DNA of 51,153 nt from a virus (Duplodnaviria > Heunggongvirae > Uroviricota > Caudoviricetes). The DNA is taken from the IMG/VR virus record IMGVR_UViG_637000105_000004, one strand, 5' to 3'. The translations under genes and the position numbers were made by a program. The notes beneath the pieces were generated by a model. It saw only the letters and a program-made list of their open reading frames with translations, did no database searches and was not told the DNA's origin. Below, piece by piece: positions 42,594-49,649 of the stretch (position 1 is its first letter; each line of letters begins with the position of its first letter).

Positions 42594-43106
42594 TTACTCA
42601 GATTTGAACTTTGGTTCTGGCAAAAGAGGAGGAGTTGAGTCCTCGAATCGTAGCCAGTGCTCCCAGATATCGTGGGATTGTAATTCCAGAAGACCAATTT
42701 GACGTGATGCAACTGCAGTGCCAGCTATAGTTCCTCCTACATAATCAACCTGGACGGACTTTGACGCTTTCTCAATTAATTCTGTCCAAGCTTCACTTTC
42801 CGCGTTAAAAGAAGCAGTTAATTCCTGCAGACGCTGTGGATCATCCTTGTTGTCTTGTTTCAAACGATTCAGGGCGGCCACCGAATACTTATTCTTAACC
42901 CAACTAACCTGAGCTAACTGAACTCTCTGACAAGCGTCCATATCAGTAGTTGTTTCCTGAGGCATATCAAAGCAGGAAATAAAAAAAGTCTCAACACCAT
43001 CATTTAGACTACTGCTCGGCTGGTTCAAAGCATCAGAAGCATTGGATGCTATCGGTATTATCAGTGCTACCGACAGAATCAAACGTTTAACATAAATCGC
43101 TCCCAT
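42594..43106 (-). CDS. Secreted protein with signal peptide (DUF1311/LprI-like, 170 aa)
   Basis: N-terminal signal sequence VKRLILSVALIIPIASNA; moron-like position and orientation. Confidence 0.65.
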   Translation of the reverse strand: MGAIYVKRLILSVALIIPIASNASDALNQPSSSLNDGVETFFISCFDMPQETTTDMDACQRVQLAQVSWVKNKYSVAALNRLKQDNKDDPQRLQELTASFNAESEAWTELIEKASKSVQVDYVGGTIAGTAVASRQIGLLELQSHDIWEHWLRFEDSTPPLLPEPKFKSE

Positions 43107-44953: not shown

Positions 44954-45478
44954 ATGTCATTTATTAAAACTTTTTCCGGGAAGCATTTTTATTATGACAG
45001 GATAAATAAAGACGACATCGTTATTAACGATATCGCGGTTTCTCTTTCAAATATCTGTCGCTTTGCAGGACATCTTTCACATTTCTACAGCGTCGCCCAA
45101 CATGCGGTGCTTTGCAGCCAACTGGTACCGCAGGAATTTGCTTTTGAAGCGTTAATGCATGATGCAACAGAAGCGCATTGCCAGGACATCCCGGCGCCAC
45201 TGAAACGCCTTCTTCCTGACTATAAACGGATGGAAGAAAAAATAGACGCCGTAATCCGTGAGAAATACGGGTTACCCCCGGTTATGAGTACGCCCGTGAA
45301 ATATGCCGATCTCATCATGCTGGCAACCGAACGCCGCGATCTCGGGCTTGATGATGGCTCTTTCTGGCCCGTACTGGAAGGTATCCCGGCAACAGAGATG
45401 TTCAAAGTTATTCCACTGTCGCCAGGCCATACCTATGGGATGTTTATGGAACGCTTTAAAGAGTTAACTGAGTCGTAA
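44954..45478 (+). CDS. HD-domain phosphohydrolase (YfdR-like, about 174 aa)
   Basis: H...HD metal-binding pattern (HLSHFYSVAQHAV; MHDATEAH). Confidence 0.7.
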   Translation: MSFIKTFSGKHFYYDRINKDDIVINDIAVSLSNICRFAGHLSHFYSVAQHAVLCSQLVPQEFAFEALMHDATEAHCQDIPAPLKRLLPDYKRMEEKIDAVIREKYGLPPVMSTPVKYADLIMLATERRDLGLDDGSFWPVLEGIPATEMFKVIPLSPGHTYGMFMERFKELTES

Positions 45479-45586
45479 AAATCAGCACGTACGAATTCAA
45501 ACTCTGCCATAAAAGAACATATAAGTAATTTATTAACATATAGATATAGGTTATATTACAAATTGAAAAATTATTGGAGAGCAACA

Positions 45587-46453
45587 ATGAATCAAAATCC
45601 ATTCTCATTCTATGACTTTCTTGGATATTTAATACCAGGTGGTTTTTTTATCCTATTAATGTATTTCTGTGGTTTGACATTCGATCTAGATATTGTTATT
45701 GACTTAAGTGAATTGCTCAGAGGTCAAAGTCAAATCTTTGGCATTTTGAACTACGCTTCAATAGTTATTATATCTTATATAGCTGGACATTTTATTTCTA
45801 TCACATCAGCATTTTTTATCGAAAAATACATGAATAAAGAATTAGGATATCCTTCCAAATATCTATTTAAAAAATTGATAGATACCTCAGAAAGCATTTG
45901 TAGCCCATCATGCGATGAGAGAAGCGCTGATAAAAAAACAAAAATAAAGAATCGCATAATCAAATGCGTATTATGTCCAATAATACTATGGGATTTTATA
46001 ACACAAAAACTATGTTATTCTCAATCTCTACCATTTCATTTAGCTAATACAACATGGTTAATGATCAAAGAAGGTTATGAGAAAAAGTTCATAACAAATC
46101 GCCAATTATTACAAGATAAAAACGGACTTGATGATGATCTCTTCAGATTGGCATATCATTATGTTTATGAGTTTTCAAAACAACATCAAACAAAAATTCA
46201 AAACTATGTTGCATTATATGGTTTTTGCAGAAACATATGTTTAATCTTTATAATTTCATTTTGGGTATCAGTTCCAACCTTTATTTATCGATTATGTACT
46301 CATAGTGATTATCTTTATAGTTTACTTTCAATAATGCTTAGCTTTTTCTTCGTCTATGTTTTCTATGTTGGTTTTGTTAAATTTTATAGAAGATATACTT
46401 TAGAAGTATTAATGGCATTTGCTGTACTTCAAAGTAACGACACTATTCGTTAA
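45587..46453 (+). CDS. AT-rich integral membrane protein (about 288 aa, 4 predicted TM helices)
   Basis: GGAGAG Shine-Dalgarno 5 nt upstream of ATG; two TM helices at each end flanking a soluble middle; very low GC. Confidence 0.7.
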   Translation: MNQNPFSFYDFLGYLIPGGFFILLMYFCGLTFDLDIVIDLSELLRGQSQIFGILNYASIVIISYIAGHFISITSAFFIEKYMNKELGYPSKYLFKKLIDTSESICSPSCDERSADKKTKIKNRIIKCVLCPIILWDFITQKLCYSQSLPFHLANTTWLMIKEGYEKKFITNRQLLQDKNGLDDDLFRLAYHYVYEFSKQHQTKIQNYVALYGFCRNICLIFIISFWVSVPTFIYRLCTHSDYLYSLLSIMLSFFFVYVFYVGFVKFYRRYTLEVLMAFAVLQSNDTIR

Positions 46454-46494
46454 TAATGTTGCTCCCGTGTGCAGACGGGATAATGGAGAAACGT

Positions 46495-46701
46495 ATGCTG
46501 AACCTCGATTGTGTTCCTATCTCAACTTATTGCAAAGAAACTGGCGAAACTCCTGAAGCAATAAACAAACGTGTACAGCGCGGTGTTTGGCGTGAAGGTG
46601 TTCAGGTTTTAAAGGTTGAAGGCGTTAAGGAGAGGTGGATTGATCTTAGTGAGGTTGCAAAATGGGCCAGACAAAACTGCTCAAACTACCGCGCGGCGTA
46701 A
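46495..46701 (+). CDS. xis: Putative excisionase (Xis-like, 68 aa)
   Basis: Small basic DNA-binding-like ORF immediately upstream of and overlapping int; GGAG Shine-Dalgarno. Confidence 0.55.
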   Translation: MLNLDCVPISTYCKETGETPEAINKRVQRGVWREGVQVLKVEGVKERWIDLSEVAKWARQNCSNYRAA

Positions 46702-47834
46702 CAATCAGGAAACACCACCAGGGAGAAACGATCAATATAACTTTCACCTACAAAGGAGTTAGATGTCGTGAGCCGCTTTCCAATCTGGAAGTAACACCAA
46801 AGAACATTAAATACGCCGAGCGTACACTCGGCGAAATCCATAATAAGATCGAAAGGGGAACATTCATTTATGCAGAATATTTTCCCCGTTCTGCTCGTTT
46901 GAAAATTTTTGGTAATGCTGCTGCAAGCAAAACGGTAAAGATGTACCTAGACGAATATCTTGAAATCTGCGAAACAAGAAAACTTTCACCCTCTACGATT
47001 GGTGGCTATAAAAAATGCCGTAGTGCGTTAGCCTCACTTCACATTTGCCCTGCAAGTGAATTAACACCAGCAACCCTGAAAGCGTGGATTCAAAGCCAGA
47101 AAACAACCTTAAAAACCATTCGCAACCAGTTATCTTTCCTACGGTCAGCACTTGATGAAGCCGTGACCGATGGGGTACTTCAAATTAACCCCGTATCGTT
47201 AGTAACAGCTTCGCGCTACCAAAGTGATAAGTCAGAAGCAGAAAGCAGCTATGTGGTTGATCCGCTATCACCAGCAGAAGTTGATGCATTACTAGCAGCA
47301 GCCGGAAACAAACAATGGGAAAATCTGTTCCGGTTCGCCATACATACAGGCCTGCGTAGTTCTGAATTATGTGCCCTACGATGGCATGATATCGACTTTG
47401 TTGGAAAAACAGCCCATGTTCAGAGCGCAAGTGTTGTCGGAGTTATCAAAGGAACAAAGACAAAAGCCGGTACCCGTAAAGTTGAACTGACTGAAGAAGC
47501 AATGTTGGCGTTGATAAACCAGAAGCCATTTACATTCATGAAGGATGCTACTGTCTTTGAAGATCCAAAGACCAATAAACCCTGGACAAGTGCTGATGCA
47601 ATCAGGAAAAAAGCATGGGTGCCAACATTGCGAAAAGCAGGTATTCGTTACAGAAATCCATATCAAACTAGGCATACATTCGCCACCCGCCATATCAGCC
47701 GGGGAGCAAACCTGTTTTGGCTTGCAGCTCAAATGGGGCATAAAGGGCCGGAAATGTTATTTCGTCATTATGGTTCATATTTAAAGGAATATGACGGTAA
47801 TACGACCAGCAATATCACAAAAAAAGCCACTTAA
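46662..47834 (+). CDS. int: Tyrosine site-specific integrase (390 aa)
   Basis: N-terminal arm-binding type motif LPRGVTIRK...TFTYKGVRCRE; C-terminal catalytic region with R...HxxR...Y (RHTFATRHISRGANLFWLAAQMGHKGPEMLFRHYGSY). Confidence 0.92.
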   Translation: MGQTKLLKLPRGVTIRKHHQGETINITFTYKGVRCREPLSNLEVTPKNIKYAERTLGEIHNKIERGTFIYAEYFPRSARLKIFGNAAASKTVKMYLDEYLEICETRKLSPSTIGGYKKCRSALASLHICPASELTPATLKAWIQSQKTTLKTIRNQLSFLRSALDEAVTDGVLQINPVSLVTASRYQSDKSEAESSYVVDPLSPAEVDALLAAAGNKQWENLFRFAIHTGLRSSELCALRWHDIDFVGKTAHVQSASVVGVIKGTKTKAGTRKVELTEEAMLALINQKPFTFMKDATVFEDPKTNKPWTSADAIRKKAWVPTLRKAGIRYRNPYQTRHTFATRHISRGANLFWLAAQMGHKGPEMLFRHYGSYLKEYDGNTTSNITKKAT

Positions 47835-47847
47835 GTGGCTTTATCAA

Positions 47848-48231
47848 TTAGGAGGCTCTCGATTTAAGCATTTCCGTACACTTAGCAAAGAGCCTCTCAG
47901 TTGTTAGAATCGCAACTTCAGACTGTTTAGAAGTGACCGATTGATCAAGTCGATAGTCTGCAACAATCCTCTGAGCTTTAAGTTGACTCAGGATAAAACT
48001 AATCCCTTTTAGATATCTAGCTTCATATACTTCACTTCCTCTTGAAGCATCACCCTGCAAATAATTGATTAGCCCCTGATGACTGTCTTTCGGCCCGTTT
48101 ACCATACAAGGCAAGACATGATGGTAAGCGCCATAGTAGGATCTTGCTATAGCATTTCGATAGCCGATTTCGTCATTACGTTGATGACAGTCTTTTGCAA
48201 AACCGAGAAAATCTTGACTATTAACCGGCAT
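47848..48231 (-). CDS. Small AT-rich cargo protein (127 aa), possible HEPN-like domain
   Basis: GGAGGG Shine-Dalgarno 7 nt upstream of ATG at 48231; motif RSYYGAYHH fits Rx4-6H; second gene of a two-gene cassette. Confidence 0.6.
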   Translation of the reverse strand: MPVNSQDFLGFAKDCHQRNDEIGYRNAIARSYYGAYHHVLPCMVNGPKDSHQGLINYLQGDASRGSEVYEARYLKGISFILSQLKAQRIVADYRLDQSVTSKQSEVAILTTERLFAKCTEMLKSRAS

Positions 48232-49036
48232 GTGCAACCCTCCGGGTAATCAGACCTAATTCGGAGATAGCATTCTGCTCAATATGAGTGTCTTTACATT
48301 CAAACCAAACAGTAAAATCTTTACCGACTAAACAATCGTGCTCAGCCATTGAAAAAGCAAGCTCAATATTCATATCAGCGATTTGTTCAGCATCAGAAGA
48401 CTTTGTCATGAATACAATCGCATTCACTTTCTCTTCCGAAATATTATAAAAACGCATTCCCGAAAGATGAACCTTCTGAGAATCCATGACATTGGCTACA
48501 TTATTGAAAATAAGTTCATATTCTAAACCAGAAAGATCGGCACGTTGCTTAAAGGATTCGACCTGGGAAACAACTTCATCAAAATTGTTGTCCATTTTTT
48601 CAGGCTCCTTATCTCCGAACAATTTAGAGTATGACTGGAAATACTTCTCCGCCAACGCCATTTTCCCCATAAAGAGGGAGTTTTCATAAGCTTGAAGATA
48701 AATAAACGGGGATACGAAGCTTTCAGCAAGCTTAATGCTTGTTTCAAAGCTTTTCTTCAACGTACCGTAATCTGACAAGAAAACAAGAAAATTCTTTGCA
48801 ACAACCTTATTATGGCATACCTGCAAGGAACGCTCAAAGAAGCCTATCGCCTCATTCACTTGACCATGTGCACCATAGACCAACGCTAAAAGATAGTCCT
48901 CAGAGACAGGATCTCTAAGTGCTTCAATCTCACGTAACATCCTTCTAAAGTTAAAGTCATCAATCCTCACTCCATCTTTGAGGTATTTAGTTAGCCCCGC
49001 GCTAATAACTGATGCTTTTTTTGCTGGCTGCAACAT
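48221..49036 (-). CDS. AT-rich cargo protein (271 aa) with TPR-like helical N-terminal region
   Basis: First gene of two-gene cassette between int and attR; 8-bp gap to downstream gene; no family recognised. Confidence 0.65.
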   Translation of the reverse strand: MLQPAKKASVISAGLTKYLKDGVRIDDFNFRRMLREIEALRDPVSEDYLLALVYGAHGQVNEAIGFFERSLQVCHNKVVAKNFLVFLSDYGTLKKSFETSIKLAESFVSPFIYLQAYENSLFMGKMALAEKYFQSYSKLFGDKEPEKMDNNFDEVVSQVESFKQRADLSGLEYELIFNNVANVMDSQKVHLSGMRFYNISEEKVNAIVFMTKSSDAEQIADMNIELAFSMAEHDCLVGKDFTVWFECKDTHIEQNAISELGLITRRVAHAG

Positions 49037-49465: not shown

Positions 49466-49497
49466 ACGGGTTCAACTCCCGCCAGCTCCACCAATCA
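49466..49497. repeat. attR core: displaced copy of the ssrA 3' end (direct repeat of 1034-1065)
   Basis: 32-bp exact match to the ssrA 3' end, followed by ~150 bp of diverged ssrA-downstream homology. Confidence 0.75.
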
Positions 49498-49620
49498 TGA
49501 TTGGACGGTGTAAGGACTACACCAACAAAAACAGGAAGTTATAAGTCTCAGCAGGACACCGACCAGACGGTGAGGAGACAAAAAAGGATACGCAACGGAG
49601 TCGCGACTCCCTATGACATT

Positions 49621-49649
49621 AAAGCCCGCTGATGCGGGCTTTTTTATTG
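49621..49649 (+). terminator. Terminator-like hairpin homologous to the ssrA terminator
   Basis: aaagcccgctgatgcgggctttttta. Confidence 0.6.

Follow-up and report, generated by a model that had tools for sequence, protein, structure and literature searches.

What is the role of the AT-rich gene that lies directly upstream of the excisionase and integrase genes in a prophage of Escherichia coli CFT073? The gene occupies positions 45587-46453 of a 51,153-nucleotide stretch of DNA from a virus of the class Caudoviricetes (IMG/VR record IMGVR_UViG_637000105_000004; this whole stretch is called the window below), which is 100% identical to the CFT073 chromosome. An original prediction, made from the sequence alone, had proposed that the gene encodes a superinfection-exclusion or abortive-infection membrane protein. 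We found that its product, an inner-membrane protein with four transmembrane (TM) helices, is very probably prophage cargo of the superfamily of Csx27, the accessory protein of type VI-B1 CRISPR systems. Circumstantial evidence suggests a role in phage exclusion, which we put forward as a best guess.

The reading frame (45563/45587-46453, + strand) has two possible 5′ bounds. The ATG at 45587 is the likely start codon, because GGAG is found at 45576-45579, the RefSeq annotation begins there and MNQNPF opens all homologs. The coding sequence and its upstream region are as follows:

45479-45586, + strand: AT-rich leader of 108 bp, the interval between yfdR and the gene
45576-45579, + strand: Shine-Dalgarno motif GGAG, 7 nt 5′ of the ATG; homologs also have a GGAG-type motif
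45587-46453, + strand: coding sequence of 288 amino acids (aa) for a four-TM inner-membrane protein, in all probability a stand-alone member of the Csx27 superfamily; WP_001075212.1; PHROG 12528

About 70 nt of the leader are common only to relatives that are 78-85% identical. WP_001075212.1 is the RefSeq entry for the gene, annotated as 'hypothetical protein'. The GC content is 0.27-0.30 over 45450-46500 and 0.39-0.51 in the flanks, in agreement with the low GC pointed out originally; the gene as a whole has 0.283, compared with 0.492 for the prophage, and its GC at third codon positions (GC3) is 0.21, compared with 0.38-0.49 for yfdQ, yfdR, xis and int. The chance probability of a run of 288 codons without a stop is ~5e-11 for DNA of this composition, and the ratio of nonsynonymous to synonymous substitution rates (dN/dS), estimated from orthologs of 78-85% identity, is ~0.18. 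The gene is thus real and under purifying selection. Indeed, the full-length protein is present in hundreds of genomes.

Hydropathy analysis gave four TM segments (residues ~12-34, 52-78, 207-232 and 243-267), with which the long helices of an AlphaFold model agree. The model, made with an alignment of 72 diverse homologs, is all-helical and confident (predicted local distance difference test, pLDDT, 90.3; predicted template modelling score, pTM, 0.89), and in it the helices of TM2, TM3 and TM4 are long and reach into a small helical domain, which residues ~79-206 make up. This topology check bears out the expectation of four TM helices, two at each end of the protein. The soluble middle expected between them is also present, but it is ~128 aa long rather than ~150. 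Family-wide, lysine plus arginine (K/R) reach a density of 0.146 in the middle segment, 0.160 in the C-terminal tail and ~0.075 in the two short loops; by the positive-inside rule, both termini and the insert between TM2 and TM3 are therefore cytoplasmic. The parts of the protein map to the window as follows:

45593-45643, + strand: residues 3-19, the best-conserved block (QNPFSxYDFLGYLIPGG), comprising the N-terminal cytoplasmic stub and the beginning of TM1, with invariant F6, D10 and Y14
45620-45688, + strand: TM1, residues ~12-34 (hydropathy, AlphaFold)
45740-45820, + strand: TM2, residues ~52-78, with Y64, G67, H68 and S74 conserved in the cytoplasmic half
45821-46204, + strand: cytoplasmic helical insert, residues 79-206 (~128 aa, K/R-rich), with juxtamembrane E79, P89 and S90, and H191, E195, H200, K203 and N206, conserved
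45887-45970, + strand: residues 101-128, a variable, indel-bearing segment with a non-conserved Cys cluster and the lowest pLDDT
46205-46282, + strand: TM3, residues ~207-232, with the NYVALYGFxR block and invariant R215 in the cytoplasmic half
46313-46387, + strand: TM4, residues ~243-267, followed by a conserved C-terminal GFVKFYRRYTLE helix (K265, E273)

The centre of the insert (residues 101-182) is variable. The Cys cluster that had drawn attention earlier does exist in the window protein, but its residues form no motif; they are unconserved even at 50-78% identity and lie in the most variable, indel-containing segment, which rules out a metal or redox motif.

The earlier view that the protein belongs to no recognisable family did not hold. 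It matched PHROG 12528, a cluster of unknown function (expectation value, E, 8e-174), and the PADLOC model of Csx27 (PDLC01605; E 1.4e-5; protein residues 6-268 against model positions 4-188 of 206), as well as PADLOC tm_4, the second membrane model associated with type VI-B systems. A profile search of 1.84 billion representative proteins showed how large this Csx27-homologous family is: 956 clusters at 50% identity had E<=1e-3, 211 of them E<=1e-30, and they came from many phyla. The best 150 listed of the 956 clusters were nearly all ~270-300 aa long and matched over their full length. The PADLOC Csx27 model was matched by 52 members (best E 2.2e-10) in a sample of 72 diverse members that are 27-51% identical to the query; 16 matched tm_4, a family with which the N-terminal block is shared, and 13 matched the NCBIfam model NF040557 'CAS_Csx27' (best E 2e-6). 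The window protein itself had no NCBIfam match at E<=0.01 and no family match in a Pfam scan, and no Pfam family recurred among the 72 members, for which there was no consistent Pfam or NCBIfam assignment. The homology and structure searches suggested with the original prediction thus gave Csx27 profile matches, but no match in the PDB.

The profile hidden Markov model similarity over most of its length, together with four predicted TM helices, places the protein in the broad Csx27 superfamily; it matches nearly the whole Csx27 model. However, it is not Csx27 proper, since it has no cas13b neighbour, falls below the NCBIfam model and is ~80 aa longer than Csx27 owing to an expanded cytoplasmic insert. 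Csx27 in the strict sense is ruled out for a gene that is carried by prophages of Enterobacteriaceae and has yfdR, xis and int as neighbours, not cas13b and a CRISPR array. Likewise, Cas13b was absent from the listed top PADLOC matches of the 144 immediate neighbours at 78 diverse loci. The Csx27 family was described as expansive by Makarova et al. (2019), according to secondary sources (PMC7642515, PMC11662929), which also attribute to that work the proposal that Csx27-family proteins are single-stranded DNA (ssDNA) channels. In E. coli, Csx27 represses the interference of two different Cas13b proteins, which is its sole known phenotype (Smargon et al.). Four-TM proteins of the Csx27 family are an already known kind. 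What we newly characterise is a clade that is carried by prophages and independent of Cas13b, with an enlarged insert in the cytoplasm, conservation on one side of the membrane, cargo behaviour and family-wide AT-richness. We found no paper that mentions WP_001075212 or 'Csx27-like'. To our knowledge, Csx27 has been without a mechanism since 2017, and the wider family has only the computational ssDNA-channel hypothesis.

Sequence conservation is strongly biased towards the cytoplasmic side of the membrane. Ten residues (F6, D10, Y14, Y64, G67, S74, E79, H191, R215 and K265) are invariant across the 72 members, and further positions are at least 90% conserved, including P5, S7, Y9, F11-G13, P17, G18, H68, P89, S90 and P131 in the first part of the protein and E195, H200, K203, N206-L210, G212, F263, F266, E273 and M276 in the second. 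Across phyla, 35 positions are at least 90% identical, and nearly all such positions fall in the N-terminal stub and the cytoplasmic halves of TM1-TM4, where the conservation score is 0.64-0.79; Y64 is a boundary position in this otherwise cytoplasm-side set. The score is 0.18-0.42 in the periplasmic halves and loops, and 0.33-0.35 in the centre of the cytoplasmic insert. Charged and polar amino acids (D, E, H, K, R, N) are frequent among the conserved residues, and the predicted topology places them at the interface of inner leaflet and cytoplasm; this pattern suggests that a gate or catalytic site is located there.

Among close orthologs, the cytoplasm-side core has a dN of ~0 and the insert a dN/dS of ~0.22. 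The fastest change, on small counts, was at the periplasmic end of the TM3-TM4 hairpin (residues 220-255), with a dN/dS of 0.35 at 85% identity and 0.78 at 78%. This part of the protein could be a specificity surface or merely be under relaxed constraint. Positive selection is not supported, as dN/dS exceeded 1 in no region.

The gene behaves as accessory cargo of temperate phages, as had been supposed. Of 5426 complete E. coli genomes, 204 have it. In strain FDAARGOS_1287 (locus L082, 2055-2628), whose prophage shares the yfdPQR...xis-int backbone, the slot between yfdR and xis holds instead a DUF551 gene and a frameshifted open reading frame (ORF). The slot is thus exchangeable, and it does not contain a recognisable defence gene in every case. 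About ten arrangements of temperate-phage backbones carry the gene. In IMG/VR, an integrase gene follows one to three genes downstream at 46 of 72 viral loci, mostly in the order gene-xis-int; in Salmonella prophages the homolog comes directly after cI, at a distance of ~0.7 kb, and in Enterobacter and Klebsiella prophages it accompanies a different integrase and attachment site. In a P2-like phage, a homolog with 42% identity forms a transcription unit of its own in the gpA-gpQ interval, flanked by one divergent and one convergent gene and followed by a GC-rich hairpin. This interval is an experimentally validated anti-phage hotspot that holds tin and old in P2 (PMC9122126, PMC13586616).

Presence or absence on a conserved backbone, occurrence on unrelated backbones and deviant base composition together mark the gene as accessory cargo in a variable slot and a probable moron. 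Family members had a GC content below that of the flanking DNA in 99% of 75 diverse genomes; the mean difference was -0.10, and it was +0.013 for control neighbours (Wilcoxon p 5e-14). GC3 was below that of the flanks at 88% of family loci. The low GC of the family was independent of host GC, and amino-acid composition accounted for only part of it; it might stem from steady gene transfer out of donors with low GC, or from selection that favours silencing or weak expression.

Outside this setting, we compared 78 loci from many phyla (Gammaproteobacteria, Bacteroidota, Bacillota, Chloroflexota, Acidobacteriota and others), of which only six had an integrase gene nearby. There was no conserved partner gene or operon, as no neighbour family was common to more than three of the 78 loci, and the longer family members had no fused Pfam domains; the protein therefore appears to act alone. 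Immediate neighbours were a mixture of integrases, glycosyltransferases, epimerases, subunits of restriction-modification systems, a CBASS cyclase, Old and ATPases of the AriA/PtuA type. We then annotated the neighbourhoods of eight distant members with Pfam. One has AbiH directly downstream, the second lies adjacent to a ParE toxin-antitoxin (TA) pair, the third is in an integrative element with WYL, AAA, restriction, NYN and methylase genes, the fourth is in a Bacteroidota mobile element with Hachiman ~4 kb away, and the fifth is adjacent to an integrase-xis pair. The sixth (locus L169, 7000-16800, of a metagenome-assembled chromosome) is found in a long co-directional run of small cassette-like ORFs, and the seventh in a patch of small genes of unknown function. 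The run at L169 encodes NADAR, RraB, NTP_transf_6, acetyltransferases, TfoX_C and DUF4440, and resembles a chromosomal integron cassette array.

The variable slot, the homolog in the P2 gpA-gpQ hotspot and the distant members in defence islands or mobile elements are the grounds for our phage-exclusion guess. Location in defence hotspots or islands, observed for the P2-type homolog and the distant members, is an association, from which a role in defence may be suspected. Association of the same kind is seen in sister prophages, where the neighbouring slot between int and attR holds the validated defence systems PD-Lambda-5 or PD-T4-9. We put the chance that the protein has any role against phages or mobile genetic elements (MGEs) at slightly short of even. 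It is somewhat less probable, and we propose it tentatively, that it is a single-gene phage-exclusion effector which works from the cytoplasmic face of the inner membrane. A broader version is more doubtful again: the large, phylum-spanning, stand-alone Csx27-like family may constitute a novel one-gene defence against phages or MGEs, with a fold of its own and a conserved gate or active site that faces the cytoplasm. The Csx27 of type VI-B1 systems would be a recruited, shortened member of this family, and the activity of the window protein would then also account for the action of Csx27.

In such a mechanism, temperate phages would carry the gene as horizontally mobile accessory cargo and the protein would be made in the lysogen, where it might oligomerise or form a pore. 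D10, H68, E79, H191, E195, H200, K203, N206, R215, K265 and E273 would form a buried, invariant polar cluster at the inner leaflet and the juxtamembrane helices, and this cluster would act as gate or active site. Specificity for the trigger or target would come from two further parts, the variable insert in the cytoplasm and the rapidly evolving TM3-TM4 hairpin on the periplasmic side. Infection might then cause an ion leak and abortive infection, as with RexB and Csx28, or, alternatively, interference with the incoming nucleic acid at the membrane, along the lines of SNIPE and of the ssDNA-channel idea for Csx27. Membrane-leak abortive infection specifically is somewhat unlikely.

Several observations weigh against phage exclusion. 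We found no experimental report of phage resistance or any other phenotype for this clade, and the only relative that has been tested, Csx27, lowers Cas13b interference instead of defending. The window protein matched none of the validated single-gene defence models in PADLOC and is absent from the supplementary tables of DefensePredictor. A structure search with the pLDDT-90 model, which found nothing in the PDB, revealed no recognisable pore, nuclease or other effector fold. As to genomic context, the alternative cargo of the slot in FDAARGOS_1287, DUF551, is no known defence gene; the eighth of the distant members is in a purely housekeeping setting; and polysaccharide-synthesis genes (glycosyltransferases, epimerases and WecG-type enzymes) make up ~10 of the 144 immediate neighbours (~7%). 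Finally, our scans found no sigma-70 match of at least 9/12 in the 108-bp leader and no terminator-like site in the 41 bp between the stop codon of the gene and the start of xis, so that co-expression with xis and int is possible. The gene may accordingly be expressed with xis-int upon induction or infection, instead of in the lysogen.

The known systems that come closest differ from the window protein in defined ways. RexB of lambda is likewise prophage-encoded, has four TM helices and is co-directional with the repressor gene, and an ion-leak abortive infection is plausible for both by analogy; however, RexB lacks the ~128-aa cytoplasmic insert, and the gene in the window is beside xis-int and not cI (the Salmonella relatives excepted). 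Membership of the RexB type is ruled out by the lack of a sequence-family match in Pfam and PADLOC scans and of a RexA-like partner. SieB and SieA are prophage-encoded membrane proteins proposed to exclude phages, as we propose here, but their genomic position is different and the window family is far broader; the SieB family (PF14163) is excluded by the absence of a Pfam match in the window protein and the 72 members and by the location beside xis. Csx28, a small membrane protein from the same CRISPR subtype, sets a precedent for a membrane-leak effector: the type VI-B2 protein forms a membrane pore and causes depolarisation, as demonstrated experimentally (bioRxiv 10.1101/2021.11.02.466367). 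It is unrelated in sequence, contains a divergent HEPN domain and is activated by Cas13b, whereas the window protein has no such partner.

The gross topology of the protein (TM1-TM2, a large cytoplasmic insert, TM3-TM4 and a C-terminal tail) is like that of MotA, PomA, ExbB and ZorA, and these stators were the top Foldseek matches, though non-significant (E>=0.43, TM-score ~0.2). A stator of the MotA/ExbB/TolQ/ZorA type is ruled out, given no Pfam MotA_ExbB match among the 72 members and no partner of the MotB, ExbD or ZorB type. The CPBP or 'Abi' intramembrane proteases (PF02517; EExxxR, FxxxH and HxxxN motifs) are also ruled out, as none of the 72 members has the Pfam match and the pattern of conserved residues is another. 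SNIPE is a membrane-anchored defence protein of E. coli that acts at DNA entry from the cytoplasmic side (PMC13190303), and its variable regions tune specificity. It has one TM helix, a DUF4041 domain and a GIY-YIG nuclease; the window protein shares no homology with it and has no recognisable nuclease domain.

Among other explanations, superinfection exclusion at the entry step survives best, though it is unlikely. Here, the inner-membrane protein would block or divert genome injection without killing the cell; its target would be either a phage protein (of ejection or tape-measure type) or a host factor for entry at the inner membrane. That a prophage carries an inner-membrane protein fits this explanation, as does the fast evolution of the periplasmic end of the TM3-TM4 hairpin (dN/dS 0.35-0.78), which would be expected of a surface that tracks phage proteins; SNIPE provides a precedent for a membrane-anchored defence placed at injection sites (PMC13190303), and the ssDNA-channel proposal, which secondary sources ascribe to Makarova et al. 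(2019), also accords with it. However, the family-wide conservation is cytoplasmic and the periplasmic parts are the least conserved, which counts against a classical periplasm-facing injection blocker. A family of many phyla with invariant charged residues better fits a fixed biochemical activity than phage-specific blocking, dN/dS exceeds 1 nowhere, and there was no match to SieB or any other exclusion family in Pfam.

It is improbable that the gene instead has a phage-serving early function, or modulates host immunity or physiology, to the benefit of the carrier phage during infection or induction rather than for protection of the lysogen. Expressed with xis-int from the leftward early operon, the protein would alter membrane physiology or damp a host response, much as Csx27 does with Cas13b. 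The gene is co-directional with cI...yfdPQR...xis-int and ends 41 bp before xis with neither a terminator-like site nor a clear promoter of its own, and the repression of two different Cas13b proteins by Csx27 in E. coli points the same way. Conversely, P2-like phages carry the gene as an isolated unit in a lysogenic-conversion hotspot, most family members are chromosomal and outside phages (an integrase being nearby at six of 78 loci), and no anti-defence family was matched.

Hardly probable either is a small membrane enzyme of lysogenic conversion or of the envelope. With an active site on the inner leaflet, it would act on a lipid or on the lipid-linked precursor of a glycan; the altered cell surface could secondarily change phage receptors. 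Membrane genes near int in enterobacterial prophages are often O-antigen modifiers (gtr, oac), and surface-polysaccharide loci are similarly AT-rich and mobile. The invariant His, Asp, Glu, Arg, Lys and Asn at the membrane-cytoplasm interface resemble a catalytic site, and the glycosyltransferases, epimerases and WecG-type enzymes among the neighbours speak for this explanation too. These polysaccharide neighbours, however, vary by locus and form no conserved operon, and genes for defence, TA systems or MGEs are equally or more frequent; the P2 hotspot location points to defence, and the protein matched no Pfam or NCBIfam enzyme family and no fold. Lastly, a decaying or functionless ORF hitch-hiking in AT-rich foreign DNA, as very low GC and variable presence among strains might indicate, is effectively refuted by the dN/dS of ~0.18, the full-length preservation in hundreds of genomes, the 35 positions of at least 90% identity and the confident AlphaFold model.

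The E. coli protein is genetically tractable and partner-free, and comes with a confident model and a short list of invariant residues; it is a well-defined candidate, not a demonstrated new mechanism. If it does exclude phages, it would represent a widespread single-gene membrane defence, encoded by ~4% of the complete E. coli genomes and known from many phyla, and a route into the workings of the accessory proteins of type VI-B CRISPR systems. If it has no effect on phages, it would caution against reading defence from hotspot location alone.

The prophage extends over ~1034-49498 (~48.5 kb) and is integrated into ssrA. Its order is a cI-like repressor gene, ..., yfdP-yfdQ-yfdR, the gene described here, xis, int, a minus-strand gene pair and attR, after which comes glaH. 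The features that define the integration and the right end are the following:

698-1060: transfer-messenger RNA gene ssrA, which supplies the attachment-site core
1034-1065, + strand: attL core, the 3′ end of ssrA
46495-46701, + strand: xis (excisionase), PHROG 2917, which starts 41 bp after the stop codon of the gene
46662-47834, + strand: tyrosine integrase gene (Arm-DNA-bind_2 and Phage_integrase domains)
49467-49498, + strand: attR core, an exact 32-bp repeat of the 3′ end of ssrA

Given the position of the attR core, the gene is part of the prophage and lies ~3 kb short of its right end. Past the 32-bp repeat, a weaker similarity continues for ~180 bp (1073-1213 versus 49506-49645). The identities of xis and int confirm the predicted location of the gene directly upstream of this pair. 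Because the genes from cI to int are all on the + strand, the gene belongs to the leftward string of early genes, at the end nearest to int. This place is the equivalent of the lambda ea/b-region and not, as had been claimed, that of sieB. Indeed, a related Enterobacter prophage (L087) has a SieB-family gene beside cI and the homolog beside xis.

The minus-strand pair between int and attR (47848-49036) is an overlapping two-gene unit. Its 129-aa protein belongs to PHROG 5176 and has a weak match to PADLOC HEPN_IX (E 1.4e-3); its 271-aa protein belongs to PHROG 17809 and has weak TPR matches. In sister prophages that share the gene-xis-int module, this slot is hypervariable: it holds PD-Lambda-5 in some (an ATPase and a D12 methylase; PD-Lambda-5_B, E 1e-123), the SecB-like chaperone component of PD-T4-9 in others (E 4e-35), and a ParA-like ATPase pair or unknown genes in further ones. 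Since the CFT073 pair occupies the slot that contains PD-Lambda-5 or PD-T4-9 in its sisters, it is a candidate defence or TA system. Another minus-strand gene (42594-43106), antisense between the cI-like repressor gene and yfdP, is nearer to the classical sieB/rex neighbourhood than the gene upstream of xis; its 170-aa product has an N-terminus like a signal peptide and weakly matches the Pfam family LprI (lysozyme inhibitor; E 0.008).

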